Source: a virus
Taxonomy: Duplodnaviria > Caudoviricetes
DNA: 64,000 nt
Virus record (IMG/VR): IMGVR_UViG_3300022601_000013
Direction: 5' to 3' (one strand)
Part shown: positions 3-44,195 of the stretch, piece after piece
How the letters are laid out: the number at the start of each line of letters is the position of its first letter
Numbering within the stretch: position 1 is the stretch's first letter
Made by a program: the position numbers and the translations under genes
The notes under the pieces: generated by a model
What the model was told of the DNA's origin: nothing
Databases searched by the model: none
The model's input: only the letters and a program-made list of their open reading frames with translations

Positions 3-3000
3 AAGTTAATTGCAAATCCAAAAAACAATCAAGAGAAAATTTACAATGCGTTGATTTCTGGCAATGAGTTAGAGCAAAGCAAAAAAGGAATTGTTAACGG
101 ATATAGTGCCGAAGATAGAACATTAATTGCAAAAGCTATTACAGAAGGTCTTCAGCAAGGTTTAAAGGAAATTAATATTAAATTAGGCAATGGTGGGGAA
201 TTAGCTATTCCAAGCAATGCAGAAATCGCAAGTACAATTCTTAGCAAATTAGGTTTTACTACTAAAACAGATCCGCTGACAGATTTTGTACAAAAACAAT
301 TTAAGAAATCTAATATAGTTGGCGTTGCAAGTTCTGGTGACGACCATTATGTTTCGGATAGTAGCAAGTTTTATAAAGTGCCTCGTAGTATAAACAAATC
401 CGATTTAAACAATGATGACGTACAAATTAGAACTCTTGAATCAATACTTAATTATGTAAATATGTTTTCTGAGGCTACCGAGAAACTTCCAGCAAATGTA
501 AAAGAGTTTAGATACAAAATTGGATCTGGAACAAAAGCAAAGTCAAAATCTATGTATTTGTTTAAAACAGAAGATGGAAAATATATAGCATTAGATAAAT
601 CAAGTTTTGATGATGTTAAAAAAGTATCATCTGATATTATGTATAATCCTAAGTTGTTTGACAAAAATGGTACATATACTGGAGCTGTTTATGGTGTAAA
701 TAATGATAGAGCGTTAACATCTGGACTTTTACCAATAAGTTCAAAAAATGCTGAAGATAATTATAAAAAAGGTATTCCAGTTTCAAAGAGCGTGACTGAA
801 ACGAACAAAAAGCCGTTAGATTTACTTTCAATTCCTGTAAAAGCAATTGAAGCCGAAAATAAAGCTCTTGATAAGCAAGCTGAGAAAACCGAAAATATTA
901 TTGAGAACAATAAGAAACTTACATCTTCATACGAAGGACTTGTTGAAGCAGTTGAGCAGTATGTAAATACAAGTAAAAAGCTTTGGGATGCATATGATAA
1001 CAAAAAAGAAACTAACGAACTTACTAAAGAAAGAAACACAGCAATTGATAAAATTAAAACATTTTTCCCAGTTGATAATACCAACGGTATAAGTGCAAAT
1101 CTTACTCAATCTGGATATGAAATGAACTTGCAAGATGGCAATGTTTCAAGGGAATTTGCAAACAAAGGTGCTGAATTTACATTGCAACACATTGAGTCAA
1201 GCATTAAAGCATCTGAAATAGAACTTGAACAATTAAAAGAAAAAACAGAAGCTGAAGAAAAGCTTGCTCAAAACATAGAAAAAACAACAGAAGCAAAAAA
1301 GAAACAACAAAAGGTAATTAAAGAAACTCCTGTGGTGAACGAAGCACCAAAAGAGCAAACTAATGTTGTCAAAGAAAGTGTAAAGATAGCTGAAAAAGAA
1401 CTTGAAACAAAAAAAGAACAACTTAAGGTTGAAAAAGAGATTACTGCTGAAGAAACAAAAAGAGTAAAAACAAAAAAAACAACTAAAACTAAAACGCAAA
1501 TTAACCTTGATGAAGAGGGTAATAACGAAGATGAAAGAGTTGACATCATACAACAAACTGTAGATAAAGCACTTGAACGACTTAGAAACGCAGAAAACAA
1601 TATTGTTCCAAAACTAAACATTGATTTATCTAAAGTAGAAACTCAAGGCGATTTGCAATATCAGATTGGAAATCTTGTGCAATCATCATTAAATGCCGAT
1701 TTGTCTGTTGGTTCTGTTAATATTGATCACGATATAGCTAAAATTTCTTTGTATAATAAAGAACTTGGTTTAGTAACACAACAAATGTGGCAATTAAAAC
1801 AAGTTGAAGATTCGTTACAGTTAGAATTTCTTGATGCAAGTAAGTTAAATGTAAACTTTGAGCAAGCTGAAAAATACGCAATAGCTCAACAAAAAGCAAT
1901 TGATAGTGCTGAAAATTGGCTTATAAATGCTAACAAGAGATTAAATACTCAAAAAAGAAATTACCAGAAATCTCAAAAAAAGATAGCTGGTTCGACAGAA
2001 TTGATAGATGTCGATGCTACAACATTAGAGGCTCAGGCAGACAAAACAATTGATAGTTTGGTAGCTCATATTCAAGATCGTATAAATAGCAACATGGGCA
2101 AAACTGTTTCAGAGGGACTTAAAAATCAAATTGTAAAAGATTTAAATGCACTTGAGAATGAAATTAAAATACGACAATTAGAACAATATACAAGTACTAC
2201 AATGAGTGCATCTGAAGCAGAGTCTGCAAGACAGGTTATCATTAACACAATAGACTCTATAGCCGCAAACGCAAAACGAAAGAATGTGTTTGACCAAATT
2301 AAAGAAAGTTATGAAAGTTTGCGTTCACGTTTAACAGACAGTTCAATCGAAGGATACATTAGCACTAACTTTACTGATGCTATTAATGAAATGAGAGTTC
2401 TCAGAGCAGATTTATCTAAAAATTCTGCCGAAGAACAAAATCTTAAAAATCTTATTGCCCTTCAAGAAAAATTATATGAAGCAAAAAAGAAGGCAGCAGT
2501 ATTTGATATAAGCGGAGAGTCTAATACTTCTGGTGGAATGAAAGCTCACAGAATTGTTGAAGAATTACAACAACAATATAATGAGTCTGTTAAAGTTTTA
2601 AAAATAGAAGAGCAACGTAATACTATTACTGCACGTCAACAAAAATTACAAGAAGAGTTAAACAAATTTAACTCTGAGCAACGTTCAAAACAACAAGAGA
2701 CAAAAGATAAAGAGCAAGAAACTGCAAACAAAGCAAAACAAGAGCAACCAATAATGCAAACATATGCTTCGTTATTTGATATTACTAAAAACATAAACTC
2801 TATTAATGAGCAAATTATGAAGTATCAAGATAAAAATGATGGTTCGCAAATGTTTGCAAACTATATTTCAAACTTAAAGCTGCAAAGACAAGAGCTTGAA
2901 GTTGAACTTAATACTATAGTTAATGACTTAAGTAATTTTTATGCCAATGGTTATATACAAGGTAATCAAAAAATTAATCCAATTCCTTCAAAGCTTATAG

Positions 3001-6000
3001 ACGGAGAAAGCTATAATTCAATTAGTTCGTTTTTAAATGACATTAAAACACAAGCAGTTTTAAGCGAAAAAGAAATTAATGACTTATTAAATAGCTTTCA
3101 AAAAATGAAAGATATGGATATATCTGGTGGAAATAAGATAGCTGATATAATTAAACCTGTATTTGAAACATCTAATAGACTTGATGGTATTCAAGGATTA
3201 AAGCCAGAAAAAACAGCACCATTAGCTGGAATATCAGATACTATAAAAGCGTATGTTGGCAAAATTAAATCAGGAGAAATGTCATGGGATTCTGATGAAA
3301 TACCATATCTTAAACAGCTTATTGAAATGTATGTTAAATATGGCAATACGCTTGCAGATACAGCTGAAAAAGAACAGAAGTATTTTGCTAACAAACAAAA
3401 ATACACTTCTGGAATGAAACTGTCAGATGTTACTAATGTAAATACAGAAAACGAAAAAGCGTATAGTGATATGAGAAAGAAACTTGAAGATACAGCACGT
3501 AAGATGGCTGAAGAGTCTGGCAAGGGTCAGATTTTTACAACAGGTTTCTCTCAGGGTGCTGACGGCATTGCAAAACTTGATTTCTCTGTGTTTGACTCTG
3601 CTACAAAGTCGTTACAAAACTTTAGGCTTGAGATGGGTAATGTAACTAACAATATGTCTGTTACAGAAACAACTGTATCTAAATCGTTGCGTAATATTAA
3701 CGCAGCACGAAAACAACTTGAATCATCATCAAACTTACTTGGTATTTTAAGTAGTTCGGGTGTAAATGTTGGTGATGGTGCAACAAAATCAGTTTCTAAA
3801 CTTGTTACTCAAATTAGTTTGTTAGATACTGAAATGAGCAAAGGGGATAAGGCAGATCAAAGTAAAATTGCAATGTATACAAAGCAGCTTGGAATTATGT
3901 CTTCTGAAATTGATAAAGCATATAAACAAATGCTTAAGATGGAAGATGGTATTAGCAGCGGAACATTAAAAAACAGAGGTGTTATAGATACAAATAGCAA
4001 TGTGTATACCCAAGCAAAACAACAAATTGAATCTTATGCACAGACTATCCCAAACGCAACAGTAAGTATAGGTGCTTTTAATGAACAGACTGGCAAAATA
4101 CCATTTACTATAAATGTAGCCAATCAAGAAATAAGAAAATGCGAAGCCCAAATAAACTCTTTAAATGGACAAATGACAATTCAAGAAAAGAGCGTTAATC
4201 AGCTTAAAACTAATATTACTCAAGCGGCTGGAGCGTATGACAGGTTTAAGGGTTCATTAGCATCTGTTGGCAAACAGTTGGTTACTGCTGTTATTGGTTA
4301 TAATGCTTTTTATAAAGTTATTAGTATGTTTAGAACTGGTGTAGGCTATGTCAAAGAAATTGATTTAGCAATGACTGAGCTTAAAAAAGTAACTAATGAA
4401 ACATCAGAAACATATGATAAGTTTTTAAACAATGCATACAAATCTGCTGGTCAAGTAGGTGCTACAATATCTGACTTTGTACAGGCAAGTGCTAACTTCG
4501 CAAGACTTGGTTATGACCTTGATCAGACATCAGATATGGCACAAACAGCTATTGTGTATAAAAATGTAGCAGACGGCTTAAACAGTATTGACGATGCTAC
4601 TGAAAGTATTGTTTCTACTATGAAAGCATTTAATGTAGAAGCTGATGCTACAATGACTATAGCTGACAAATTCAACGAAGTTGGTAACTCATACGCTATA
4701 ACTTCAGCAGGCATAGGCGAAGCTTTAAAGCGTTCAGCATCATCATTGGCTGCTGCTGGAAACACATTAGATGAGTCAATTGCTCTTGTAACTGGAGCTA
4801 ATGCAGTAGTTCAAAATCCAGAAGTTGTTGGTACAGCATTAAAAACACTTTCGCTCAGAATCAGAGGTGTTAAGACCGAATTAGAAGAAGCTGGTCTTGA
4901 TGCTGAAAACATGGCTGAAACTACGGCAACATTGCATGAAAAATTATTAGCACTTAGCCACGGAAAAGTTGATATATTAAAAAATGCAGACGAGTTTGAA
5001 TCTACAACTGAAATTTTAAGACAACTTGCGTCAGCATGGGAAGATATGACTGATATGGAACAGGCTGCAGCAATTGAGCTCGTAGCTGGTAAACGTCAGG
5101 CAAACGTTGTGTCATCACTTATGACAAACTTTGATATAGTAGAAGATGCAATACAAACATCAATGAAGTCAGAAGGTTCTGCACTTAAAGAAAATCAAAA
5201 ATATCTTAATTCAATACAAGGTAAAACAGAAGCTCTCACAAGATCAACACAAGAGCTTTGGAATGAATTAATAAGTTCAGAAGTAATTAAATATTTTATT
5301 GATGTAACACAAGGTGTTGTTGATTTTGCTAACGCATTTGGTCCATTAAAAACAACATTGGCTGCAGTATTGACATATTTTATGGCGTTCAAAAAAGTAA
5401 ATCCATTGTTAACAATTCAAGGATTTATAAATCAAATGTCGGCTTATGGAAATGCTTCTACATCGTTGTCAAGCCTTACTGGTTCAATAGGTGTAAGTAA
5501 CTTAGGAACAGCAGAAATAGCTACATACGCAGCAGCTGTACAAAATTTAACGTACCAAAAACAAGCGGCTATACTTGCTACAAACGGTTTAAATCAAGCA
5601 ACTATAAAAGAGATATTACTTGAGAATAAAGCAACAGAAGCTGATATACAATCGGCAATGACACAATCAATTGTTACCAGACAAAAACAAGCTGATACAG
5701 CTGTCAATACAGCTTTAACTATAAGCACAGAAATGGCAAGTAATGCAAAATTAAGCGAGGCTGCAAGCAATTTTCTTTTAGCAAATACTGGGAAAGAGCT
5801 TACAAATCAAATGCTTGCCGAGGCTGTTGGTCGTGGTGCAATTACTAAAGCAACAAAAACAGAAATTGCAGCTAAATTTGGACTTATTGGTGTAAATACT
5901 GGTGTTGCAACATCAATTAAAGGTATTGGAACTGCAATAAGACTCGCCATTAGCTCAAATCCTATAGGGTTTATACTTGCAGTTGTTAGTACTATTGCTA

Positions 6001-9000
6001 TGGCTATTCCACTTTTTGATAGATTTAGTCAATCGGCTGAAGAACTTGCACAAGAAATGGAACAGGTTAAAGATGCATACAAACAAGTGTCTGATGAAAT
6101 TAACAGTAATATATCTAAAATCACTGACGTTGAAGACGAATTTAATCGTCTTTCAAAAGGTGTAAGTGACTTAGGCGAAAATATTTCATTATCGGCAGAC
6201 GATTATGCAAGATATCAAGAAATAGTTCAAGAACTTGTTGGTATATCTCCAAGCCTCATTTCTGGATACGACAAGGAAGGTAAAGCTATTGCGAACAAAA
6301 ATAGTTTAATTGAACGTTCAATTGAGCTTATGGAAAGAGAACAACAACTTGAGGCAAAAAAACTTACTACTGGAGATACAGGCAAAAATGTATTAAAAGA
6401 TATTAAAGACAGATACAATAAAACTGCTGGCAAAAAAAGTAGCGAAACACATGATTTTACAATAAATTACAGTGCAAGCCTTAATGATGAAGTGTGGAAG
6501 CATGTGGGTAAAAATGGTTTTGGCACACCAACAATTATTGAAGAAATTATCGGAGAAGATACATATGGCGGTGACGTAGTAGCGTTCGCAAGAGCGGAAT
6601 ACGAGAAGGTCATAGATGATTTAAGAAATGAAAATAGTGTTATTGAAAAATATCTTGGCACAGAATATGCAAACACCTTAAGAGAACGTGTTGCGGAATA
6701 CGAAGATTCTATGAAAATTTTTGATGCCGAATTAAGTAAAATCAAAAGTGAATACAACGAACAACTTTCTAATACCCTATTAGGTTCAGACGAATACTGG
6801 GATCTTAATAGTGATATGAGAGGTTATGCTCAAAGTTACGTTTTAAATCTTGATGTTAATACTGAAAATATAAATGAAAAAGAAAAGGAAGTAGAAGAAT
6901 TTGTTAAGTTCTTGTCTGAACATCAGGATGATTTTTCAGATACTTTTGAAAAAGGATATGATGCAATATCAAAAACAGACGAAAAAGGTATAGCTATATC
7001 GTACAAAAAGTATATTAAAAATGTTGAAGATTTTAAGAAAGAACTTCAAGATAATACAGTTTATAATGACGAGCAAAAGAACTGGATTCTTTCAACACTT
7101 GGTTTTGATACTATAGATGAAGACTTAGAAAAAAAGGTTGATAAAATAAGAAATACATTAATAACAGACATTGCTGGGCCTACGCATAAAAGCGTTGTTG
7201 GACCGTCAAATGACACTGTAGATAAACAAATTGAAATAGGAAACTTTATTAACAGCCTTTCTACTCAAGATCTTGAAATATTTTACACAATTAGTGCAAG
7301 TCCAAACAGTATGACATTTGATGAAATTATTGCCGCAATACAAAAAGTAAAAGATTCAACTGGTGTAGGCGTTATTGGTATTGAAACACAAAGCTCAATT
7401 GTTGAACAGTTTGAAAAACATAAGGAAATTTTAACTCAAACTCAAGAAATCTTTATGGACAATGTTGCTGTAACAGAAGAGTATAAAACAGCATTAACTG
7501 AACTTGGTATTTCTGCAACAGAATTAAATGAATGTTTCTATGAAGCAAATCCGCTTGTTGTAAAAAATGCTGAAAAACTTAAAGAACTTATAAAGAACAC
7601 AAAAAACAATACAGCAAACAATACAAAATTAGCAAAAAGCCAAGCAATGCTTAAGTACACAAAATTGCAGAAGCAAACTCAAGATTTAGCAAAAAGATAT
7701 AAAACTTTAACATCCGCTGAAAAATCACAGTTAAAGGCAATGTATGAAGAAATGTCAGTTTTGCAGAAAAACATTGCTAAATATTCATTACTTGAACACC
7801 AACTTCTTGGAACAGCTAATGCATATGAAGAGTTTGCGAATGCTCAGGAAATAGACAGTAGCAATACTTATACAGAACAAGCTCAAGATATGGCTAATGC
7901 ACTTGCAGAAGCTTTTAATTCAGCAAAGCTTGGTACAGAAAGTGCTCAAGCCGCAATTAAAGGTCTTGTGCCAGAGAGTGTATATAAGGATATTGACATT
8001 CTTGATGATAAAATGCAAGCTATATACGACTATTTCAACGGTGGCACACTTTCAAAATATATCACAATAGAATACAATGATGATGATCATAGTATTGAAA
8101 GAGTCGAAATAACAATGGAGAATATGAAAAAATTCTTCGAAGATGGCAAAACTAATGGTGTGTTTACTGGAACGTGGGATGAGTTTGATTTAGACCCAAC
8201 AATTAATAGTTTAGACCAGCTTGCCGAAAAGATGAATGTTACAAAAGAAGTGGCATTCGCAGTAATGCAAGAAATGGAAAAATATGATATTAATTGGCTT
8301 GGTGGCGATTTTACTACATTACTTGACAGACTTTCTCCAGATTTTAATAGCCTTGAAAATGAGATTTACAAAACATCTACTGCGATGGCTGAACTTGAAC
8401 AGGAATTCATTAATGGCACTGTCTCGGAAGAAGAGTATGGCGAACAAGTTCAAAAGTTATCTGTTCAAATGAGTGACTTAAACGAAGCGGCAAAAGAAAA
8501 AGCTTTGTCATATATAGAACTTAATAAAGAGATTACTGATGTAACTACAGAATTACAAAATGCACGAAAAGAATTAAACAAAGATCCAGAGAATGAAGAG
8601 GCTTTAAATACTGTTAAAGAGCTATCAGAAAAATACAAAGAGCTTGCAATACGCAAAGCCGAATTGGGCAATTTATCTGAACTTGAAATGGCACAGGCAC
8701 TTGAGGCGGCGAGTATAAATGCAGATAACTTAAATGACTCGTTAAGAGAAGTTGATGGCAATATAGAAACTACAATTGAAGGCTTAGAAAAAACTTATGG
8801 AATTATTGCTAATATAAACTCTGATGGTGGTATTGAACTTTCTATGTCAGGCTCTATGAGCACAGAATTACAAGAACAATTAAAAGGTATAGGAGCTCTT
8901 AAAGATGATGGAACTATTGATATATCTCTGTTCTATAATACTTTAAATGACGAGCAAAAGAAGCAATTTGATTCACTTAATGAGCTTACTGGTAAAAAGA

Positions 9001-12000
9001 ACTTAATCGAATATGCAATGAGCATGGATGGTGAAGACGCAGTGCAAGAGGCTCTTGATGGTATTCTTCAAGTATTAACTAATATCTTTGAGCAACTTCA
9101 ACAGCACCCATCTCTTACTATAAATACTTCTTCAGCAAAAACAAATGTAGATAGTGTTTTAACCTCATTAAAAGACATTGTAAATGGCACATGGGATAAA
9201 TCTGTAACTATTACAAGAACTATAAAAGACCGTGTATCAAGTATATTTGGTTCTGGTCAAGCTAACGGTAATGCAAATGTTAAAGGAAATGCGTATGTTA
9301 ATGGTAAGTTTGGAGCACCAAAAACAGAGGAATCACTTGTTGGCGAACTTGGCCCAGAAATGCGTGTGCGTGGAAACAGATGGGAATTACTTGGAGAAAA
9401 TGGTGCAGAGTTTACAGAAGTTAAAAAAGATGACATAATCTTTAACCATAAACAAACAAAACAACTCCTTGAAAATGGTCATATAAATTCTCGTGGAAAG
9501 GCATATGCTTCTGGAACAGCGTATGCTGGTATTAACACATGGGTAAGTGGCTATCACGATACAAGTGGTAGCGGCAATGGAGATAGTTCATCTTCAGATG
9601 ACGCTAAAGACGAATTCAAAGAAGTCTTCGATTGGTTTGAAGTTAAACTTGAAGAAATCAATGAGTTACTTGATTTATGGGCTGCTCAACTTGAAAATAT
9701 AGTTGATATTTCTGGCAAGGGTGCAAAGATAGATAGTATTATTGACCAAAACAAATATAAGCTTGATATACTTGCACAAGGTCTTAAGCTTTATGAAAAT
9801 TATACAAATCAATTATTAACTGATATTCCTGCACAGTATAGAGAGGCTGCCAAGAACGGAAAAATTGCAATAGAAACATTTGCTGGCGATGCTGGTGAAA
9901 AGACTCTTGAAGCAATAAACAATTATAGAGACTGGGCTCAAAAGGTTGCTGATGTTAAACAGCAAATGGAAGAACTTACTCAGACAATTGCTGATTTAGC
10001 TAAACAGAAATTTGATATTATTGATGAAGGATATGGTAATAAAATAACTCTTATGGAGCTTCAGATTGACAGGTTGAAAGATTCTGTTCAGTTGATAGAA
10101 GATAAGGGTAATATTGCTGCTTCTCAATATTATGATGCAATGACTAATATAACAAATGATAGAATTAGCAAATTACAAGAAGAACATAAGCTGTTACAGA
10201 AGTCGTTAGACGAATCTGTTGAGGCTGGAGATATTGCTAAATATTCTGATAGATGGTATGAAATGGTTGAAGCAATATATACTGTTGACCAAGAAATCAT
10301 GGAATGCACATCAGACCTTGAAGAATTCCAAAATGCAATCAATGAAATTCATTGGAATAATTTTGATGAGTTAGTTAACAGACTTGAGTACTTACAATCA
10401 GAAACTGATAGCTTAATTGACTTAATGGAGCAAACTGGTGAAATTATTGATTATCCAAAAGATAATGAATACTGGGGAGCAAAGGATGTTGCGTGGAGCA
10501 AAGAGGGCATTACATCTTTAGGATTGTATGCTCAAAAAATGGAAATTGCTGAATACACATCTGAACAATATGCTAAGGCAATTGATAATCTTAATAAAGA
10601 TTATAAGGCTGGTAAGTATAGTGTTAGTGAATATCAGGAGAAACTTGATGAATTAAAACAAGCTCAGTATGACTCAATTAAAACCTACTATGATGCTCAA
10701 GATGCAATTGTAGACCTTAATAAAACCAGAGTTGATGCAATAAAAGATGGCATTAATAAGGAAATAGAAGCATACGAAAAACTTATAAACAAAAAGAAAG
10801 AAGAGCTTAGTGTCGAAAAGGATATGTATGACTTCCAGAAAGATATAGCTGAGAAACAAAAAGATATAAGTGCAATTGAAAGAAAAATATCAGCATTATC
10901 TATGGACAATTCCGCTTCAGCAGTAGCACAAAGAAAGAAACTTGAAGCAGAACTTGCAGAAGCTAAAAACACTCTTGATGAAACATATTACGACAGAAGC
11001 ATCACAGACCAACAAAACGCCCTTGATAAGGAACTTGAAAGCTTTAAAGAACAAAAAGATGCTGAAATAGAAAAGTGGGAAGAATATTTAGAAGATGTTC
11101 AAAAAGTTGTAGCAGATAGTCTTGGTATTGTGCAGACAAATGCTATTGGTGTTTATGACACATTATCTGAAAAGGCTTCTGAATATAATTTAACATTGTC
11201 AAATTCCATAACAACTCCTTGGAAGGACGGTATGAATGCCGTTAGTTCATATCAAGAAACATTTAATACTGCTTCAAGCTCTACATATGAACAGCTTGGT
11301 AATATTAAGCAACAGTGGCAAGATATTATTGATTTAATGGTTAAAGCTGCTAATGTTGATATTAGTAATCAAAAAGTTGACAATCAAACTCATGTTGCCG
11401 CTGAAAAGAAACAGCAACCTACAAAACAAACTACTACTACACAACAATCACAATCAACTTCTGCAAAATCTGCTCAACCAAGCACATCTGCAGGAAGTAC
11501 AATTACAGTAAAATCTACAGCAACACATTTTGCTACAGGTCAGCGTATGGCAAGTTTTGTTCCTGGCGGTAGTTATACCGTATATCAGGATAATGGTGAC
11601 AGAGTTCTGATTGGTAGAAATGGTGCTTATACTGGCTGGATTTACAAAAAAGATATTCAAGGATATGCGTCAGGCACAACTGGTGTAAAGAATAATCAAC
11701 TTGCATTGATTGATGAACTCGGTGAGGAGTTAGTTATGCATGCAGATGGAAATGGAAAGCTTACTTTCTTGTCAAAAGGAAGCTCGGTAATTCCACATGA
11801 CATTTCTGAAAACTTAATGAAGATTGGCTCAATTGACCCTCAAGAAGTTTTAGACAGAAATAGAGCATCTATCAGCATTGCACCAAGTGTTGCAAACAAT
11901 AATGTAAATATAAACATTAGTTATGGAGATATTTTACATATTGATAAGTTTGATGGAAACAATCCTGAAGACATAGCTAAACTCGTTGAGGCACGATTTA

Positions 12001-12050
12001 ATGAACACACTAAGAGCTTAAACAACTCGTTGAAAAAGTATGTAAGATAA
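3..12050 (+). CDS. giant phage tail tape measure protein, 5'-truncated by the window
   Basis: Frame is open upstream of the TTG at 51 to the window edge. TP901-type TMP core (VKEIDLAMTELKKVT...FARLGY...KFNEVGN), hydrophobic segments, long coiled coils, GELGPE/DELGEE motifs, SH3-like C-terminal segment; precedes Dit/Tal-like genes. Confidence 0.9.
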   Translation, partial: KLIANPKNNQEKIYNALISGNELEQSKKGIVNGYSAEDRTLIAKAITEGLQQGLKEINIKLGNGGELAIPSNAEIASTILSKLGFTTKTDPLTDFVQKQFKKSNIVGVASSGDDHYVSDSSKFYKVPRSINKSDLNNDDVQIRTLESILNYVNMFSEATEKLPANVKEFRYKIGSGTKAKSKSMYLFKTEDGKYIALDKSSFDDVKKVSSDIMYNPKLFDKNGTYTGAVYGVNNDRALTSGLLPISSKNAEDNYKKGIPVSKSVTETNKKPLDLLSIPVKAIEAENKALDKQAEKTENIIENNKKLTSSYEGLVEAVEQYVNTSKKLWDAYDNKKETNELTKERNTAIDKIKTFFPVDNTNGISANLTQSGYEMNLQDGNVSREFANKGAEFTLQHIESSIKASEIELEQLKEKTEAEEKLAQNIEKTTEAKKKQQKVIKETPVVNEAPKEQTNVVKESVKIAEKELETKKEQLKVEKEITAEETKRVKTKKTTKTKTQINLDEEGNNEDERVDIIQQTVDKALERLRNAENNIVPKLNIDLSKVETQGDLQYQIGNLVQSSLNADLSVGSVNIDHDIAKISLYNKELGLVTQQMWQLKQVEDSLQLEFLDASKLNVNFEQAEKYAIAQQKAIDSAENWLINANKRLNTQKRNYQKSQKKIAGSTELIDVDATTLEAQADKTIDSLVAHIQDRINSNMGKTVSEGLKNQIVKDLNALENEIKIRQLEQYTSTTMSASEAESARQVIINTIDSIAANAKRKNVFDQIKESYESLRSRLTDSSIEGYISTNFTDAINEMRVLRADLSKNSAEEQNLKNLIALQEKLYEAKKKAAVFDISGESNTSGGMKAHRIVEELQQQYNESVKVLKIEEQRNTITARQQKLQEELNKFNSEQRSKQQETKDKEQETANKAKQEQPIMQTYASLFDITKNINSINEQIMKYQDKNDGSQMFANYISNLKLQRQELEVELNTIVNDLSNFYANGYIQGNQKINPIPSKLIDGESYNSISSFLNDIKTQAVLSEKEINDLLNSFQKMKDMDISGGNKIADIIKPVFETSNRLDGIQGLKPEKTAPLAGISDTIKAYVGKIKSGEMSWDSDEIPYLKQLIEMYVKYGNTLADTAEKEQKYFANKQKYTSGMKLSDVTNVNTENEKAYSDMRKKLEDTARKMAEESGKGQIFTTGFSQGADGIAKLDFSVFDSATKSLQNFRLEMGNVTNNMSVTETTVSKSLRNINAARKQLESSSNLLGILSSSGVNVGDGATKSVSKLVTQISLLDTEMSKGDKADQSKIAMYTKQLGIMSSEIDKAYKQMLKMEDGISSGTLKNRGVIDTNSNVYTQAKQQIESYAQTIPNATVSIGAFNEQTGKIPFTINVANQEIRKCEAQINSLNGQMTIQEKSVNQLKTNITQAAGAYDRFKGSLASVGKQLVTAVIGYNAFYKVISMFRTGVGYVKEIDLAMTELKKVTNETSETYDKFLNNAYKSAGQVGATISDFVQASANFARLGYDLDQTSDMAQTAIVYKNVADGLNSIDDATESIVSTMKAFNVEADATMTIADKFNEVGNSYAITSAGIGEALKRSASSLAAAGNTLDESIALVTGANAVVQNPEVVGTALKTLSLRIRGVKTELEEAGLDAENMAETTATLHEKLLALSHGKVDILKNADEFESTTEILRQLASAWEDMTDMEQAAAIELVAGKRQANVVSSLMTNFDIVEDAIQTSMKSEGSALKENQKYLNSIQGKTEALTRSTQELWNELISSEVIKYFIDVTQGVVDFANAFGPLKTTLAAVLTYFMAFKKVNPLLTIQGFINQMSAYGNASTSLSSLTGSIGVSNLGTAEIATYAAAVQNLTYQKQAAILATNGLNQATIKEILLENKATEADIQSAMTQSIVTRQKQADTAVNTALTISTEMASNAKLSEAASNFLLANTGKELTNQMLAEAVGRGAITKATKTEIAAKFGLIGVNTGVATSIKGIGTAIRLAISSNPIGFILAVVSTIAMAIPLFDRFSQSAEELAQEMEQVKDAYKQVSDEINSNISKITDVEDEFNRLSKGVSDLGENISLSADDYARYQEIVQELVGISPSLISGYDKEGKAIANKNSLIERSIELMEREQQLEAKKLTTGDTGKNVLKDIKDRYNKTAGKKSSETHDFTINYSASLNDEVWKHVGKNGFGTPTIIEEIIGEDTYGGDVVAFARAEYEKVIDDLRNENSVIEKYLGTEYANTLRERVAEYEDSMKIFDAELSKIKSEYNEQLSNTLLGSDEYWDLNSDMRGYAQSYVLNLDVNTENINEKEKEVEEFVKFLSEHQDDFSDTFEKGYDAISKTDEKGIAISYKKYIKNVEDFKKELQDNTVYNDEQKNWILSTLGFDTIDEDLEKKVDKIRNTLITDIAGPTHKSVVGPSNDTVDKQIEIGNFINSLSTQDLEIFYTISASPNSMTFDEIIAAIQKVKDSTGVGVIGIETQSSIVEQFEKHKEILTQTQEIFMDNVAVTEEYKTALTELGISATELNECFYEANPLVVKNAEKLKELIKNTKNNTANNTKLAKSQAMLKYTKLQKQTQDLAKRYKTLTSAEKSQLKAMYEEMSVLQKNIAKYSLLEHQLLGTANAYEEFANAQEIDSSNTYTEQAQDMANALAEAFNSAKLGTESAQAAIKGLVPESVYKDIDILDDKMQAIYDYFNGGTLSKYITIEYNDDDHSIERVEITMENMKKFFEDGKTNGVFTGTWDEFDLDPTINSLDQLAEKMNVTKEVAFAVMQEMEKYDINWLGGDFTTLLDRLSPDFNSLENEIYKTSTAMAELEQEFINGTVSEEEYGEQVQKLSVQMSDLNEAAKEKALSYIELNKEITDVTTELQNARKELNKDPENEEALNTVKELSEKYKELAIRKAELGNLSELEMAQALEAASINADNLNDSLREVDGNIETTIEGLEKTYGIIANINSDGGIELSMSGSMSTELQEQLKGIGALKDDGTIDISLFYNTLNDEQKKQFDSLNELTGKKNLIEYAMSMDGEDAVQEALDGILQVLTNIFEQLQQHPSLTINTSSAKTNVDSVLTSLKDIVNGTWDKSVTITRTIKDRVSSIFGSGQANGNANVKGNAYVNGKFGAPKTEESLVGELGPEMRVRGNRWELLGENGAEFTEVKKDDIIFNHKQTKQLLENGHINSRGKAYASGTAYAGINTWVSGYHDTSGSGNGDSSSSDDAKDEFKEVFDWFEVKLEEINELLDLWAAQLENIVDISGKGAKIDSIIDQNKYKLDILAQGLKLYENYTNQLLTDIPAQYREAAKNGKIAIETFAGDAGEKTLEAINNYRDWAQKVADVKQQMEELTQTIADLAKQKFDIIDEGYGNKITLMELQIDRLKDSVQLIEDKGNIAASQYYDAMTNITNDRISKLQEEHKLLQKSLDESVEAGDIAKYSDRWYEMVEAIYTVDQEIMECTSDLEEFQNAINEIHWNNFDELVNRLEYLQSETDSLIDLMEQTGEIIDYPKDNEYWGAKDVAWSKEGITSLGLYAQKMEIAEYTSEQYAKAIDNLNKDYKAGKYSVSEYQEKLDELKQAQYDSIKTYYDAQDAIVDLNKTRVDAIKDGINKEIEAYEKLINKKKEELSVEKDMYDFQKDIAEKQKDISAIERKISALSMDNSASAVAQRKKLEAELAEAKNTLDETYYDRSITDQQNALDKELESFKEQKDAEIEKWEEYLEDVQKVVADSLGIVQTNAIGVYDTLSEKASEYNLTLSNSITTPWKDGMNAVSSYQETFNTASSSTYEQLGNIKQQWQDIIDLMVKAANVDISNQKVDNQTHVAAEKKQQPTKQTTTTQQSQSTSAKSAQPSTSAGSTITVKSTATHFATGQRMASFVPGGSYTVYQDNGDRVLIGRNGAYTGWIYKKDIQGYASGTTGVKNNQLALIDELGEELVMHADGNGKLTFLSKGSSVIPHDISENLMKIGSIDPQEVLDRNRASISIAPSVANNNVNINISYGDILHIDKFDGNNPEDIAKLVEARFNEHTKSLNNSLKKYVR

Positions 12051-39811: not shown

Positions 39812-40596
39812 CTTCCCACTCCATGTCGCCATGGCCGAGTTTTATTTCAACTCGTTGTGGGCTGGACTATGTCTTAACCATATCTTTTTTGACTTAGGTT
39901 GACCCTGTATAGTCTCTACGCACTTCCAATATAATTGGATTGGTACGGCGTTCTCAGAATTGTTCGCCGTTTAGGGGTCATTCACGCAAGAAGTTTCCTT
40001 CAAGGTGCTCCTACAAGAAATTTTTAATGTAACAAATTTTCCTTATGTTTTTTAGTGTTTTTGCCTCTGTAATTATCAGTTAAAGCGTGACAATTTGGAC
40101 ATAACAATTCAAGATTTTCTATATCATTGTTGTCTTTGTCTCCATCTTTGTGATGAACCTCAAGAGGTATCGGAACATTATTCCACATTGTATTTAAACA
40201 GCGTTCACAAATATGTTCTTTGAGTCCTTCTCTAAGAAGCTTCTTTCTGATTTTATTTGTTTGGATATGATCACTTTTTACATATTCTTCAAACGGCATA
40301 TATCTATCGCTTTCGTATGTTTTTCCTGAAAGCCATCCTTGCCCTGTAAAATGCGAAGTGTCTAAATCGTATTGCTCTATCATCTGGTGCATTTGAGCAA
40401 CACTACTGCCAGAGTTTTGTTTATATCCACATTTTCTGGACAATTGAGCATAATTAAAACTTTCTCTTACAAATTGTTCAATTTCTTGCCGAGTAAATCT
40501 TTCCCATTTTTTCATACAAATCACCTAATTTTTTAATATTAGACAATTCTTTAAGCGTCTTGTATGAATTTTTTATAAAAGAATTACTTTCTGAAA
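39812..40596 (-). mobile_element. group I intron (IC3-like), 785 nt, inserted after U34
   Basis: Terminal G; GUAGAGACUA (39919-39910) and AAGACAUAGUCC (39875-39864) form P7; UGACCC/GGGUCA P3; CCUAAG...UAUGG tetraloop receptor; ACGGCG/CGCCGU P4. Confidence 0.92.
40024..40524 (-). CDS. intron-encoded HNH homing endonuclease
   Basis: CERC...LEVHHKDGDKDNNDIENLELLCPNCH; lies inside the intron. Confidence 0.9.
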   Translation of the reverse strand: MICMKKWERFTRQEIEQFVRESFNYAQLSRKCGYKQNSGSSVAQMHQMIEQYDLDTSHFTGQGWLSGKTYESDRYMPFEEYVKSDHIQTNKIRKKLLREGLKEHICERCLNTMWNNVPIPLEVHHKDGDKDNNDIENLELLCPNCHALTDNYRGKNTKKHKENLLH

Positions 40597-40638
40597 AAGT
40601 CCCTTGTGTCTGCCTATTCCACCACAGGAGCTTGGGTA

Positions 40639-40699
40639 TCTACGGAGCGTGGCCAAGCAGTGACCACCACATCAAAATTGTGCTGCTTTACTCCGTAGA
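40639..40699 (-). ncRNA. small structured RNA element between tRNA-Lys and tRNA-Leu
   Basis: 9 bp outer stem UCUACGGAG/CUCCGUAGA, inner AAGCAG/CUGCUU, possible GUGGUC/GGCCAC pseudoknot. Confidence 0.5.
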
Positions 40700-40700
40700 G

Positions 40701-40776
40701 TGGTGAGACATGAGGGACTTGAACCCTCGACCTATCGCTTAAAAGGCGATTGCTCTGCCGACTGAGCTAATGTCTC
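40701..40776 (-). tRNA. tRNA-Lys(UUU)
   Basis: 76 nt cloverleaf, AUCGC-CU-UUU-AA-GCGAU, encoded CCA. Confidence 0.96.
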
Positions 40777-40807
40777 ATATATAATATATGTTAATTTCGC
40801 CATTTTA

Positions 40808-41254
40808 GATAGCTGGTTGGTCGAACCAACTATCATTAATGACTCGCTCTCGTTGCCCTTATAATATCAATAATTAATAAACGACCAACTTTACACATTA
40901 TATCTACCAAGTAGGCAACATCAATACTTGAAAAGACTCAACGTGGTCGGCTTGCGAGCGTATGTATAGGCCTGTTGAGTTCTACAATCAACTTTAACCA
41001 ACCTTTGATTGGTACTCCCTCAAACCTCATGCGGTAATTAGGAGCAAAACTAAGGATAGTGGATATCCAACTATCCGTACAAAACACTCGTCAGCGTTTT
41101 AATATATTTTTTAAATATTCCTGTCACTCTTTAAGGTTCTCTGGCAGGCGAACTACGAGATGTTTACAAACTTTTAAGCTACTCGATATCATTTCACTTA
41201 AATTGTCAGATTATAGAGCCCCGCTGCTCAAGGTACTTTCTCACAGGTGCTCTC
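40808..41254 (-). ncRNA. large structured ncRNA candidate between tRNA-Ser and tRNA-Lys
   Basis: No minus-strand ORF of 60 aa or more; at least seven helices and two crossing pairings; most wobble pairs favour the minus strand. Confidence 0.6.
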
Positions 41255-41344
41255 TGGCGGAGAGAGTGGGGTTCGAACCCACGCATCGAATAAACGACCT
41301 AATTGTTTAGCAAACAATCCTCTTAACCGCTTGAGTATCCCTCC
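41255..41344 (-). tRNA. tRNA-Ser(GCU)
   Basis: 90 nt cloverleaf, AUUGU-UU-GCU-AA-ACAAU, long variable arm, G73, CCA. Confidence 0.95.
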
Positions 41345-41350
41345 ACTTAA

Positions 41351-41775
41351 TACTTGTTACAAGCCAGCCTTGAGGACAATCCAAGAGCATTAACCATTAA
41401 CTCTAAAACCTAACATCAAGGATTTTATCAAGCTTTCGTTGGCTATAACAGGCTTACACCGAAGATGCTGTTAGTCTATGCCATATTTACAACTTTAATA
41501 TAATAAACTTTACACACAGTAAAACTTTGAGTCTTGACTTTTAAACTGTAAGATTTGAAATTTAAGCTTTACAGACACACTTACAAATATGTACAAAGCA
41601 GTGTTTGTACATTCTGTTTTATATATCAAATAAAGAAAAATTCTTCTTTCCAATCTTTAAGCTAAAGACTATTAGCATTTACTGCATGTTGTTTTTATTA
41701 TTATTTTACATCATTTTAAAACACGCAAAAACAAACGATGAATAGTTGTTTAGGATTTTCAGCTTGCAACAAGTA
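41351..41775 (-). ncRNA. 425 nt ncRNA candidate closed by a 14 bp terminal helix, with an internal heptamer array
   Basis: UACUUGUUGCAAGC (41775-41762) pairs with GCUUGUAACAAGUA (41364-41351), including a G.U pair; internal helices. Confidence 0.7.
41522..41570 (-). repeat. seven phased degenerate 7-nt repeats
   Basis: AAAGCTT AAATTTC AAATCTT ACAGTTT AAAAGTC AAGACTC AAAGTTT. Confidence 0.7.
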
Positions 41776-41799
41776 GTTGTTAATAAATATTAATTAAAC

Positions 41800-42453
41800 T
41801 TAATATTCAAACTCAATAATTGTAAGAGCATTGCTACAGCTAAGTGCAGCGTCAATCTCTGTTTCAAACTTTGTGATATACTCAGAAAGTTCCTCCATAG
41901 CACTTTTGATTTTGATTGGGTCAATAATATCATAAGTGTTATTTTCAATATAGGTCTTTCTAAGAGCCTTCATTGCTTCATCATCAACAGTCATCTTGCT
42001 GTCCTTTGGCTGCGACTGAATTACTGAAAGGACGTAATTTTCTGCCTTCTTTTCAATAGCCTCACCAGAGTTTCTATTTAAAGTATCCTGTGTAATATTA
42101 TACTGGCTTGTCATATTCATAAGAAGACCCTTAAAGTGATCCATGCCGTGCTGCTTTAAACTGATTGCTTCAGCTACTGTATACTCATCGTTACCAATTG
42201 TAATTTTGGTAGTAGCATTAGAAAGTGTAACTGCCCTTTTTAATGCATTTCTGCGGTTAATTAGATCAGTAGCCTTGTTATAACATGACTTCATATATTC
42301 TTTATAATCATTAATAGACATACCTGCGATTTTTTCATTGGAATGCTTATTAGTAGTTACATAAGAACCTTCACAAATAGCCTTATTAATACGGCTATCT
42401 AAAGTTTTTAATTCAGATAGTGCTCTATGCACGTTCATTGTTTCTTTAGTCAT
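41800..42453 (-). CDS. 217 aa alpha-helical protein of unknown function (possibly DIP1984/DUF6847-like)
   Basis: AGGAGG RBS; VHRALSELKTLDSRI, TVAEAI, EIDAALSCSNALT. Family resemblance is from recall only. Confidence 0.75.
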   Translation of the reverse strand: MTKETMNVHRALSELKTLDSRINKAICEGSYVTTNKHSNEKIAGMSINDYKEYMKSCYNKATDLINRRNALKRAVTLSNATTKITIGNDEYTVAEAISLKQHGMDHFKGLLMNMTSQYNITQDTLNRNSGEAIEKKAENYVLSVIQSQPKDSKMTVDDEAMKALRKTYIENNTYDIIDPIKIKSAMEELSEYITKFETEIDAALSCSNALTIIEFEY

Positions 42454-42511
42454 TTTTTATTCCTCCTAATAAATAAATATTAATTTTCAATATGTTTAAT
42501 TTTATTGACTA

Positions 42512-43151
42512 CTATTTGCTTGTATAGCTCCATTTGAAGCCTCCAGCAGTTCCCTTGTTTGTTCTGCAACATCTGCTTATATTTTGACATGCTATTTCAA
42601 GTTTTTCTGCTGCTTGTTTCATATAATCCCATGTTTTTATAAATGTTCCATCAATGCTATATTGATTTACTTTTTTAGCCTTGGGATTGTTTTCTTTTTT
42701 TCTTGAATCACTAATTTTCTTTTTAGTTTCCTCTGAGTGATGTTTCCCAAACATAGCATTGTTTTCACCACGATGAGTCTCTTTCTGGGTTTTGATTGCG
42801 TTTTATTGCCGCTTTTCTAATATTTGCTCGACTTAATTCTGACGGTCTGCCATGTGATCCACCATCTTGTAAATTATATCCTTCTTTAGGATTGATTGAG
42901 TTGAGCTCTTTAATCAAAACCCTTTCAAAATTGTTGGCTTCATCTTTAGTAAGACCTTGTGCGACAATCTCATGATCAAAGCCATCCCAACCATACTTTT
43001 TTATTGCACGATAAAAATAACTATTTTGTTTATAACCCTGTCCGTTGTTCCATCTTTTTTCTGGCTTTTGGCACGTTTGTCCAACATACTTTTTACCATT
43101 AATTTTATTTGTATGTATATACACACAATAATTATCATTACAATTTCCCAT
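42512..43151 (-). pseudogene. frame-split GIY-YIG/NUMOD homing endonuclease
   Basis: 42765-43151 GIY-YIG (YCVYIHTNKINGKKYVGQT...GYN); NUMOD3/NUMOD1 part (HRGENNAMFGKHHSEETKKKIS...ISRCC...AGGFKW) continues in another frame. Confidence 0.75.
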
Positions 43152-43311
43152 AAATAATCACCCTAAGATACGACTATCTTTTTACATTTGTTTGTTCTAC
43201 ATTATCTCTTTTGTTAATTTTGTATTGTTTGCTTTAAAACACATACGCTTTAGTCATAATAATCTCTCCTTTTTCTCATAAGTTTTAAGCTTTGTTTATA
43301 TCCTTTTGGGA

Positions 43312-43396
43312 TGGTTGGGGTAGCTGGATTCGAACCAGCGTAAAGCTTTCGCTGACGGAGTCAAAGTCCGTTGCCTTACCACTTGGCGATACCCCA
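43312..43396 (-). tRNA. tRNA-Gln(UUG) with atypical long variable arm
   Basis: U1-A72 acceptor UGGGGUA/UACCCCA, ACGGA-CU-UUG-AC-UCCGU, 15 nt variable region, CCA; 85 nt. Confidence 0.9.
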
Positions 43397-43452
43397 ATAT
43401 ATTTAAGGTATCAGAGTGGTTTGTGTTAACCACTCCTTAACCTTATGTACTT

Positions 43453-43481
43453 ATTATATCATATTAATTTTGTATTGTCAA
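43453..43481 (-). promoter_or_regulatory. sigmaA promoter with conserved box, upstream of the RNA island
   Basis: TTGACA-ATACAAAATTAATATGA-TATAAT. Confidence 0.85.
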
Positions 43482-43538
43482 GCCCTTTTTGGAATTTTTT
43501 TCAAGTTTGTGAAAACTGCACAAATAAACAGCTTATAA

Positions 43539-44195
43539 TTATTTTACAATATACACATTTGCGTATGATGTAAGTGCATAGCAATCGCTTACAGTTGCAC
43601 AGAATACGTCAACTACACCCCATTTGCAACCACAATCAAACACGGTATATGTTCCTAAACCTTCAATATAAATCTTATCTCCATATTTAATTCCAAGCTG
43701 CTTTCTCTGGGCATTGTTCATTGCAACACCGCCAACGTAAGGCATAACGCCTGATGCTGTTGGTCTGCCTGTTGCGACATAGCCTGTAATCCTCATATTT
43801 CCAATCAAAGTTTTTGCCTCCTGATTTTCTGTCTGAGTGGTAGTTTCAATAGGTGTATTTTCTGCGACCGTTGTTTCTATTGTGGTTGTAACCTCTGGTT
43901 CTTTCTCGGTTGATACAACTACTGGCTTACTTGTTGTTGTGTTTGTAGTAGTTGTTGTGCTTGTGGTTGAGGGCTCTGTAGTAGTTGTTACAGGCTCTGT
44001 GGTTGTTGTAGTTGTAGTTTCAGAAGTTGACGTTGTTGTAACATCAGTAAATGTTGTCGTAGTCATTAATGTACTATCTCCCTGACTGCTATACGGTCTT
44101 TTAACCGTAGTTCTGTTGCCCACAACTATACAAAATATAACGGCAACCACCGCTATAACTGTGTTTATAATTATTGTTATTTTTTTATTATCCAT
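43539..44195 (-). CDS. membrane-anchored 3D-domain protein with Thr-rich linker
   Basis: N-terminal TM; poly-Thr stalk; ITGY...TASG...YGDKIYIEGLG.Y.V.DCG...VDVF. Confidence 0.8.
   Translation of the reverse strand: MDNKKITIIINTVIAVVAVIFCIVVGNRTTVKRPYSSQGDSTLMTTTTFTDVTTTSTSETTTTTTTEPVTTTTEPSTTSTTTTTNTTTSKPVVVSTEKEPEVTTTIETTVAENTPIETTTQTENQEAKTLIGNMRITGYVATGRPTASGVMPYVGGVAMNNAQRKQLGIKYGDKIYIEGLGTYTVFDCGCKWGVVDVFCATVSDCYALTSYANVYIVK

Follow-up and report, generated by a model that had tools for sequence, protein, structure and literature searches.

A predicted pseudoknotted RNA with a 7-nt phased tract is linked to the gene for a 217-aa protein in phage tRNA operons

What lies in the 425-nucleotide (nt) gap between the gene for a 217-amino-acid (aa) helical protein and a tRNA-Ser gene in a viral tRNA operon, and does the gap belong with the protein? 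It occupies positions 41351-41775 on the minus strand of the window, a 64,000-nt stretch of DNA (IMG/VR record IMGVR_UViG_3300022601_000013; Duplodnaviria, Caudoviricetes) with a G+C content of 32%, whose source was judged to be a large tailed phage of the gut. A preliminary description of this DNA had proposed that the gap encodes a discrete non-coding RNA that forms a two-part system with the adjacent protein. Comparison with homologous loci indicates that 41351-41775 encodes a conserved, strand-specific, structured non-coding RNA, and that this RNA is, as far as genome comparison can tell, obligately linked to the upstream gene. The most likely reading, which we hold with a little better than even confidence, is that gene and RNA make up a dedicated ribonucleoprotein module in which protein dimers read a track of 7-nt units.

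Within the window itself, the evidence for an RNA gene is modest. The RNA begins 24 nt past the stop codon of the 217-aa gene and ends 6 nt before tRNA-Ser, and a script check found these boundaries, as well as all other coordinates and sequences of the preliminary description, to be exact. No open frame is present in the gap, and TAA-rich stops close all six frames. The 14-nt terminal inverted repeat is by itself unremarkable (1 of 93 inverted pairs in 3.2 kb), and the minimum free energy of the RNA has a z-score of -5.43, with 0 of 100 shuffles as good. The comparison of homologues was decisive for the reality of the RNA. Homologous loci were gathered by two independent routes, one starting from the protein and the other from the RNA alone. 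On the protein side, the contigs of close homologues (63-84% identity) were read, as were two loci from IMG/VR and two phage records from GenBank. In all 12 of these loci a stretch of 280-464 nt opens a few bases past the stop codon, and its opening strand, which is followed by GAAAAY, pairs with a far-end strand that comes after an invariant GGCUGG; the conserved downstream RNA expected of homologues was thus present in 12 of 12 close relatives. On the RNA side, a pattern of the 3' domain matched 97 viral stretches, and 66 of the 72 that have the upstream GAAAAY anchor also have a closing helix of 12-20 base pairs (bp), formed by about 20 different sequences. This pattern replaced a first one (TGUAAAGCUUA...TGUAAAGUU), whose matches in viral contigs were mostly due to chance and included two CRISPR arrays (L006, L007). 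The RNA ends are set by the closing helix in 12 + 66 loci, and the RNAs of the family range from 280 to 490 nt. After removal of sequences more than 92% identical, 37 RNAs remained and were aligned with MAFFT (alignment A2); unless stated otherwise, the counts of pairing and conservation given below refer to these 37. The elements of the RNA are as follows, where RNA position p corresponds to window position 41776 - p:

41351-41775, minus strand: the whole structured RNA, 425 nt
41761-41775, minus strand: 5' strand of the 15-bp closing helix P1
41748-41760, minus strand: leader GAAAAUCCUAAAC, with GAAAA invariant in the 37 sequences; its AAUCC (41757-41753) is the 5' strand of pseudoknot PK1
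41741-41747, minus strand: 5' strand of pseudoknot PK2, AACUAUU, from an unbiased covariation scan
41709-41740, minus strand: hairpin P2, CAUCGUUU...AAAUGAUG, whose loop holds the 5' strand of pseudoknot PK3 (41728-41720)
41682-41690, minus strand: 3' strand of PK3, AACAUGCAG, which follows an A-rich linker and pairs with the P2 loop
41575-41681, minus strand: variable region with lineage-specific hairpins, unalignable in A2, holding a tRNA or tRNA-like insert in some relatives
41522-41570, minus strand: seven contiguous heptamers in 7-nt phase, consensus AAAGUUY
41490-41511, minus strand: two isolated AAAGUU units (41505-41511 and 41490-41496), from the sequence and A2
41441-41482, minus strand: hairpin GGC...GCC whose tip is of the UUCG type, seen in the sequence and in A2 and shared by about half of the relatives (no separate count)
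41366-41436, minus strand: 3' domain, which opens with an invariant AAAG.UU unit and AUAAAAUCC and includes helices Pa, Pa2 and Pb
41392-41398, minus strand: 3' strand of PK2, AAUGGUU, which is the loop of hairpin Pb
41378-41382, minus strand: 3' strand of PK1, GGAUU, in the 3' domain between Pb and Pa
41351-41365, minus strand: 3' strand of P1, with the invariant GGCUGG directly before it

The pairing of these elements is conserved across the family. Overall, 91.4% of cells are paired as compared with 70.3% after shuffling (0 of 500 shuffles reach the observed value), and sliding the partners by one to three columns drops the pairing to 35-43%. For P1, PK1, PK2, P2, Pa, Pa2 and Pb, the pair counts and an unbiased scan for stacked covarying columns agree. 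The closing helix had been described as 14 pairs with one G.U (41775-41762 with 41364-41351); it grows to 15 bp with a U.G, is paired in 100% of cells and shows compensatory changes in 12 of its 15 pairs, so that the covariation proposed as a test of the terminal helix is present. The G.U pair of P1 is conserved in 30 of 37 sequences and would be an A.C mismatch on the other strand, which assigns the RNA to the minus strand. In the 3' domain, the CCUUGA/UCAAGG helix noticed earlier is likewise present: Pa (CCUUG/CAAGG, 41421-41417/41372-41368) is paired in 100% of cells, with two of five pairs covarying. It is accompanied by Pa2 (41411-41409/41375-41373; 96.3% paired, 3/3 covarying) and by Pb (41404-41400/41388-41384; 86.8% paired, 4/4 covarying). 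In the 5' domain, the four outer pairs of P2 (CAUC/GAUG, 41740-41737/41712-41709) are 91% paired and all four covary, while the four inner pairs come from reading of the sequence.

Three pseudoknots are predicted in the RNA core, and none of them is the one drawn in the preliminary description, in which UUAGGUUUU (41413-41405) pairs with AAAAUCCUAA (41759-41750). These two strands are complementary, but the comparison lends the pairing little support (own versus swapped duplexes -4.15 versus -3.60; 33 of 2000 permutations as good), and the AGG of this pseudoknot pairs instead with CCU (41375-41373) in the covarying 3-bp helix Pa2. The actual partners of the 5' leader lie elsewhere in the 3' domain. 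PK1 (AAUCC with GGAUU, 41757-41753/41382-41378) is 94.9% paired with three of five pairs covarying, and its own duplex energy is -5.84 versus -2.85 for swapped partners, with 0 of 2000 permutations as good. PK2 (41747-41741/41398-41392) is 93% paired, and all seven pairs are compensatory. PK3 seemed unsupported as aligned by MAFFT (36.5% paired) because this region was misaligned; an alignment-free comparison then favored it in 37 of 37 RNAs (own -9.21 versus swapped -4.45 kcal/mol; 0 of 2000 permutations as good), and the element is best described as a putative H-type pseudoknot of the 5' domain.

If the gap were not an RNA gene, it could be a miniature inverted-repeat element with 14-bp terminal repeats, a mini repeat array or a region that codes in another genetic code. 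The ends do form a 14-nt inverted repeat, and the loose repeat-based DNA pattern matched two CRISPR arrays by chance. However, there is one credible copy in the 64-kb window, its position is fixed behind one gene in every relative, and the compensatory changes include the conserved G.U that pairs on one strand only; stops are frequent in six frames, the period is 7 nt and not 3 nt, and the repeats are contiguous, with no spacers. This reading is refuted by covariation and synteny and deserves practically no credence.

The phased tract in the middle of the RNA appears to be its most conserved single-stranded feature. The seven 7-mers at 41570-41522 and the two further AAAGUU copies were confirmed by script, and the 7-nt periodicity holds in homologues: the tract is exactly 49 nt long in 30 of 37 RNAs; of the others, four carry an insertion of 1 nt and two of 2 nt, and one has an eighth unit. 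Three isolated AAAG.UU units follow the tract, the last of which is invariant and opens the 3' domain. Conservation within the heptamer is as follows:

Position 1: A in 100%
Position 2: A in 92%
Position 3: purine in 94%
Position 4: G in 73%
Position 5: U in 51%, C in 27%
Position 6: U in 98%
Position 7: pyrimidine in 87%

In a covariation scan of the whole alignment, no covarying partner was found for any tract column; thus, the tract is conserved as a sequence at fixed phase and not as a helix. A tract of 49 nt in most RNAs, essentially invariant at A1 and U6 and without a covarying partner, has the look expected of a single strand that is read by a protein, as judged from the aligned sequences.

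Which protein this might be is suggested by genome comparison. Starting from the RNA, all 52 loci with enough upstream sequence carry the 217-aa protein gene directly upstream and on the same strand, at a distance of 6-125 nt (6-37 nt in most, 125 nt in one) and a protein identity of 34-64%. Starting from the protein in bacterial genome assemblies, mostly of gut Clostridia, the RNA was found downstream in 31 of 35 testable loci, which probably represent prophages or binned phage contigs; the four misses are the most divergent proteins (30-33% identity). A covariance model of the 3' domain only (R1) scores 81.8 bits at the RNA of the window, where the next-best match is 16 bits (E 0.93) and R1 finds no second credible copy within the 64 kb. 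R1 also matches just behind the homologous gene in Bacillus phage BCP8-2 (39.3 bits), Xoo-sp15 (38.4), phiCD211 of Clostridioides difficile (35.4), the jumbo phage RsoM2USA of Ralstonia (35.1), Jenst of Brevibacillus (33.5) and the T5-like phage KKP_3711 (23.4, E 0.036). In T5 itself, which was reached by tblastn (megablast from the T5-like locus returned itself alone), the homologue is gene T5.085. The R1 score there is just 16.7 bits (E 0.031), yet inspection of the unannotated gap of 440 nt reveals a GAAAGCCCAAGC leader, CCCUAG/CUAGG, GGCUG, a closing helix of 15 bp and AAAG units in phase. The predicted T5 RNA occupies about 43145-43491 on the complement of AY543070.1, directly behind T5.085. 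All seven named phages, T5 included, thus have the RNA behind the gene. The coupling of the RNA to the 217-aa gene claimed at the outset is borne out in 52/52, 12/12, 7/7 and 31/35 loci. A homologue of the protein occurs in about 700 deposited phage genomes, including T5, Bastille-like phages of Bacillus, phiCD211 and the Ralstonia jumbo phage, and the RNA was verified behind the gene in each of these four lineages. The deposited annotations call the gene hypothetical or, wrongly, tail fiber and leave the place of the RNA blank.

The surroundings of the 3' end vary. A same-strand tRNA lies within 40 nt of the RNA 3' end in 10 to 12 of the 37 RNAs; other relatives have a consensus promoter after the RNA, and BCP8-2, Jenst and RsoM2USA have an intrinsic terminator. 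The proposal that the RNA is released by tRNA processing fits the locus of the window, where tRNA-Ser begins 6 nt on, and does not extend to the family: since a tRNA lies near the 3' end in only about a third of relatives, RNase P release is plausible here but is not a general feature. In one clade, a complete tRNA-like gene (L010:4333-4405; 48.7 bits with the tRNA model) is embedded in the variable region of the RNA (L028, L029, L035, L051 and L080 belong to the same clade). If excised, this inner tRNA would split the knotted RNA into two pieces joined by P1, PK1 and PK2. T-arm-like GGUUCGAAUCC segments were also seen in the variable regions of other relatives (L073, L047), and the order of the L073 variable region resembles a permuted tRNA.

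These arrangements bear on another account, in which the element is a cis-acting 3' untranslated region (UTR) of the protein mRNA or of the tRNA operon that controls the stability, processing or translation of the upstream gene, possibly with feedback by the protein. Such a UTR would be expected where the RNA sits, 6-37 nt after the stop codon in most cases (125 nt in one) and always on the same strand; no convincing promoter of the RNA's own was found by pattern scan at this locus, and an intrinsic terminator directly follows the RNA in several phages. However, three pseudoknots, a 15-bp end clamp and a 49-nt phased tract surpass the needs of known 3' stabilisers, and the closing helix bounds a self-contained unit from which the mRNA is excluded. 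The inner tRNA of some relatives also argues against it, as tRNA processing would detach the RNA from the mRNA. We regard a cis-acting 3' UTR as quite improbable.

The 217-aa gene (41800-42453, minus strand) matches phrog_1491 at E 1e-50, a family with a tail fiber annotation that looks like a propagated guess and a mis-annotation. No sequence match to the protein was found in Pfam, NCBIfam or PDB. A profile search returned 3269 clusters of relatives at 50% identity, nearly all 205-220 aa long. Folded from its single sequence, the protein gave a poor model (predicted local distance difference test score, pLDDT, of 50.7), and an AlphaFold2 model built on an alignment of 27 homologues was used instead (pLDDT 84.9); it consists of long helices with small beta elements at the ends. 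A two-copy model scored 0.65 as a symmetric homodimer, whereas the best of three controls scored 0.00, and this mark was reached by 20 of 30 proteins known from solved structures as pairs of one chain and by 1 of 23 known as single chains. The homodimer runs agree in at least 98% of contacts, with a partner pLDDT of at least 87. The modeling supports, without proving, that the protein forms a symmetric homodimer. No similarity was found between the protein and the other ORF of about 218 aa in the operon (43539-44195) that would make them paralogs.

Taken as a ribonucleoprotein module, the system could work as follows. Gene and RNA would be co-transcribed from the promoter of the tRNA operon (43481-43453), and in this phage an RNase P cut at tRNA-Ser would free the 3' end of the RNA. 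The RNA would adopt a compact fold in which the 15-bp P1 joins its ends, PK1 and PK2 lock the 5' leader onto the 3' domain, and PK3 forms in the 5' domain. This scaffold would present a single-stranded row of seven AAAGUUY units plus three isolated units. The DIP1984-like helical protein, as a predicted symmetric homodimer, would bind the track in a 7-nt register, with several copies per RNA. That the protein physically binds the RNA seems to us slightly more probable than its opposite; the stricter proposal of the preliminary description, one subunit per repeat, is tentative and rather doubtful. The placement of the module inside phage tRNA operons points towards a cellular role in the sphere of tRNA or translation. 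Such a ribonucleoprotein would be a hitherto undescribed one.

Several points weigh against this reading. Many of the 52 loci found from the RNA are closely related and collapse to about 26 distinct RNAs at 92% identity, and co-transcription with close linkage would also arise with a cis-acting 3' UTR. The protein is mildly acidic (mean isoelectric point 5.9, net charge -3.7), and searches of Pfam, NCBIfam and PDB sequences found no recognisable RNA-binding domain in it. The top structural match of the AlphaFold2 model, PDB 3KDQ (Foldseek E 0.015, probability 1.0), is a Corynebacterium diphtheriae protein of no known function; VIA-align superimposes 151 of 152 residues with a root-mean-square deviation of 6.2 and a Z of 11.2 (next match 7.7), and a Z below about 13 between helical proteins can reflect a mere common arrangement. 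The nearest named ESM Atlas cluster carries DUF6847 (PF20935; template modeling scores of 0.58/0.70 to the protein model), although PF20935 gave no Pfam profile match even at E up to 10 and 3KDQ no PDB sequence match, and the phage protein is about 65 residues longer. As neither 3KDQ nor DUF6847 has a known function, a likeness to them would explain nothing yet. The likeness to 3KDQ could also sway the homodimer result, though the sequence identity is just 11-14%. Seven units are an odd number for a dimer. The number of contiguous units is seven in the clade of the window, 11 in KKP_3711, five in T5 and four in Jenst, and the spacing is irregular in BCP8-2; the phasing persists in other lineages though the unit count differs. 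As number and regularity differ by lineage, a ring of fixed stoichiometry is unlikely.

Could the RNA act mainly alone? It might assemble with itself, as ROOL and GOLLD do, or its AAAGUUY units might serve as a sponge that titrates a host factor binding single-stranded RNA, in which case the protein would assist it as a chaperone or stabiliser, or would have a part of its own in the same pathway. We know of no dedicated protein partner of ROOL or GOLLD. Like the RNA described here, these are large, ornate, pseudoknotted RNAs of phages and prophages that sit beside tRNA genes and have no known function, and GOLLD can hold an inner tRNA, as do some members of this family. Both assemble into RNA-only cages, and a large multi-pseudoknot phage RNA beside tRNA genes is the ROOL/GOLLD setting (10.1101/2024.12.08.627333). 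The tolerance of inner tRNA inserts, as reported for GOLLD, the partial self-complementarity of the tract units (AAA with UUU) and an acidic protein without a known RNA-binding domain all fit an RNA that acts by itself. However, neither ROOL (RF03087) nor GOLLD (RF01998) nor another large RNA was matched over 41340-41800 and 40500-43600, at gathering thresholds or at E up to 10, and the RNA differs from both in being smaller, in having a 7-nt phased tract and in always being preceded by one specific protein gene. Self-pairing of the tract in a Watson-Crick register is not supported, as the position that would pair with the invariant A1 is C in 42% of units. The linkage to one gene in 52 of 52 loci exceeds what is expected of a solo RNA. 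An RNA that works mainly alone is thus unlikely, and the ribonucleoprotein module is still preferred.

Among known RNAs, the closest is an orphan. The preliminary description could not assign the RNA to a known class, which needs revision for its 5' end: the first ~86 nt correspond to RAGATH-27 (Rfam RF03100), a candidate small RNA motif of 86 positions with one annotated hairpin. The RAGATH-27 model aligns in register with the first ~86-90 nt of the family RNAs, a span that takes in the 5' strand of P1, the leader (GAAAAC..AAAC), the strand of PK2, P2 and PK3. It gives 77.2 bits in Dulem virus 39, 43.7 in L001, 42.5 in L015, 35.4 in L011 and 32.1 in the window (41684-41773); the Rfam scan proposed for the locus returned this sub-threshold match and no other family. 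Only Dulem virus 39 passes the gathering score of 76.1, so that the window copy is not a member by the Rfam rule and is, judged by A2, a divergent homologue. The annotated hairpin of RAGATH-27 is PK3, whose pairing is found here between 41728-41720 and 41690-41682, and its conserved CGAAAAC..AAAC corresponds to UGAAAAUCCUAAAC in the window. The 45 conserved nucleotides that appear unpaired in RAGATH-27 are here the strands of P1, PK1 and PK2, with partners 330-400 nt downstream; thus, the catalogued motif is a fragment of this RNA. The entry covers about a fifth of the molecule and omits the heptamer tract, the 3' domain and the partner gene. No paper was found on RAGATH-27, T5.085, DUF6847 or the role of this RNA or protein, and the main text of PMC5737381 does not mention RAGATH. 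A precedent for the genomic logic is RAGATH-18, an orphan motif that co-occurs stably with an upstream gene and proved to be the RNA partner of IS607 TnpB (PMC11061315). The RNA and the protein are different ones there, a guide RNA with a nuclease, and no sign of a guide segment or a nuclease domain was seen here.

The way in which the track would be read recalls other systems. In Bacillus subtilis, HutP acts on the hut terminator and TRAP on the trp leader as oligomers that recognise short motifs recurring at a constant distance along a single strand, namely UAG triplets every 7 nt for HutP and 11 (G/U)AG triplets for TRAP. Seven units at an exact 7-nt spacing resemble these targets, in the way of working only. 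HutP and TRAP are small beta-rich rings that control termination on leader RNAs, whereas here an all-helical 217-aa predicted dimer faces a tract within a closed, knotted RNA downstream of the gene. The folds of HutP and TRAP were not listed among the fold matches of the protein, an absence that does not exclude either. A second likeness is to transfer-messenger RNA (tmRNA) with SmpB, also a multi-pseudoknot RNA of several hundred nt with paired ends that lies among tRNA genes and has one dedicated small protein. However, the RNA of the window has no tRNA-like acceptor and T-arm end and no tag reading frame, and no tmRNA was found in the window by ARAGORN or Rfam (E up to 10). The same tools detect a full tmRNA (960-1369, 114.9 bits) in L001 (IMGVR_UViG_3300006217_000010), in the same tRNA island about 2 kb upstream of the module. 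A Y-RNA-like or any other Rfam family was not matched at the RNA; a Y RNA or YrlA, which would be expected near a TROVE-domain gene for Ro60 (Rsr), is thus a disfavored reading, and readings as a mini CRISPR array or a region in an alternative genetic code were rejected.

The heptamers can also be read as look-alikes of anticodon loops. With its positions in the order 5-6-7-1-2-3-4, a unit becomes pyrimidine-32, U33, YAA, purine-37 and N38, as in the loop of tRNA-Leu(UAA/CAA), and could serve as a decoy or a recruiting site for an enzyme directed at tRNA or for a host anticodon nuclease. The match is good at '32' (pyrimidine 78%), '33' (U 98%), '35' and '36' (A 100% and 92%) and '37' (purine 94%), the module lies in tRNA operons, and genes for tRNA-Leu(UAA/CAA) come next in relatives. 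However, position '38' is G in 73% of units, and a G at position 38 is unusual in tRNA. The units also lack stems, whereas enzymes that read anticodon loops generally require a stem-loop, and so loose a loop consensus can be matched by chance with an A/U-rich pattern. Anticodon-loop mimicry is highly improbable. A broader version, nearly as far-fetched, would join it to the ribonucleoprotein module: a new class of phage ribonucleoprotein acting on the tRNA pool, in which a triple-pseudoknot scaffold displays units that mimic the anticodon loop of tRNA-Leu and protein dimers load onto or guard them. Such a particle would decoy or recruit a tRNA-directed enzyme, for example a host anticodon nuclease of anti-phage defence.

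The ribonucleoprotein module sits in a minus-strand tRNA operon with the order promoter, tRNA-Gln, homing endonuclease (two ORFs), 217-aa gene, 425-nt RNA and tRNA-Ser. The features around the module are:

43453-43481, minus strand: consensus sigma-70 promoter (pattern scan, 12/12 matches plus extended TG)
42765-43151, minus strand: GIY-YIG catalytic ORF, between tRNA-Gln and the 217-aa gene
42512-42754, minus strand: NUMOD1/NUMOD3 DNA-binding ORF, separate from the GIY-YIG ORF and in the same interval
41255-41344, minus strand: tRNA-Ser(GCU), from ARAGORN and Rfam, beginning 6 nt past the end of the RNA and P1

The promoter is likely the operon start, a function suggested by its sequence, and a pattern scan of 40400-43700 found no terminator-like site. 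The GIY-YIG and NUMOD ORFs look like one homing endonuclease split over two reading frames. In L011, the closest relative, the homing endonuclease is absent and tRNA-Gln directly precedes the 217-aa gene, which marks the endonuclease as recently inserted in the operon. An HNH homing endonuclease ORF (40024-40524, minus strand) lies just downstream of tRNA-Lys, and three homing-endonuclease ORFs fall inside 3.2 kb of the tRNA operon. The tRNA-Gln(UUG) (43312-43396, minus strand) is 85 nt long, with a 12-nt insertion in the variable region and a possible small extra arm AGC-GAAA-GCU; a long variable arm is atypical for tRNA-Gln, and the tRNA-Gln of L011 at the same position is 77 nt long. Between tRNA-Ser and tRNA-Lys lies a 478-nt ORF-poor spacer (40777-41254, minus strand) with no Rfam match. 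In L012, tRNA-Ser and the spacer likewise precede tRNA-Lys, the first ~280 nt of the spacer occur in the shorter L013, and in L011 both are missing and tRNA-Lys comes straight after the RNA. The spacer may represent a second RNA or what is left of a mobile insertion.

Relatives of the locus come from contigs of gut metagenomes (100-230 kb) and from gut Clostridia assemblies. Four of them (L015:4667-5654, L017:4457-4654, L019:4149-4654 and L022:3858-4654) have a gene of about 510 aa with Pfam DUF2828 and DUF7788 after the tRNA block that follows the RNA; no such gene was seen in the part of the window ORFs that was scanned. In Dulem virus 39, a match to a truncated type II hammerhead ribozyme (L009:1-47; 37.3 bits, threshold 37) lies about 3.5 kb upstream of the module. 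Elsewhere in the window, ORFs encode a DNA polymerase, an anaerobic ribonucleotide reductase, RecJ, DnaB and several homing endonucleases. A tape measure protein ORF (3-12050, plus strand) of at least 4015 aa runs off the window start and is exceptionally long; only its residues ~1200-2670 match tape measure families, with about 1200 unassigned residues on each side.

The gap behind the 217-aa gene thus holds what appears to be an RNA as intricately folded as those of the riboswitch and ROOL classes. What sets it apart from the orphans among these is an obligate protein neighbour together with a single-stranded track of striking regularity, and the RAGATH-27 entry is shown to be the 5' fifth of a far larger RNA. 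Because T5 and Bacillus phages carry the module, its function is directly testable with ordinary genetics and biochemistry, and the module might uncover a novel means by which phages deal with tRNA, translation or host defence.

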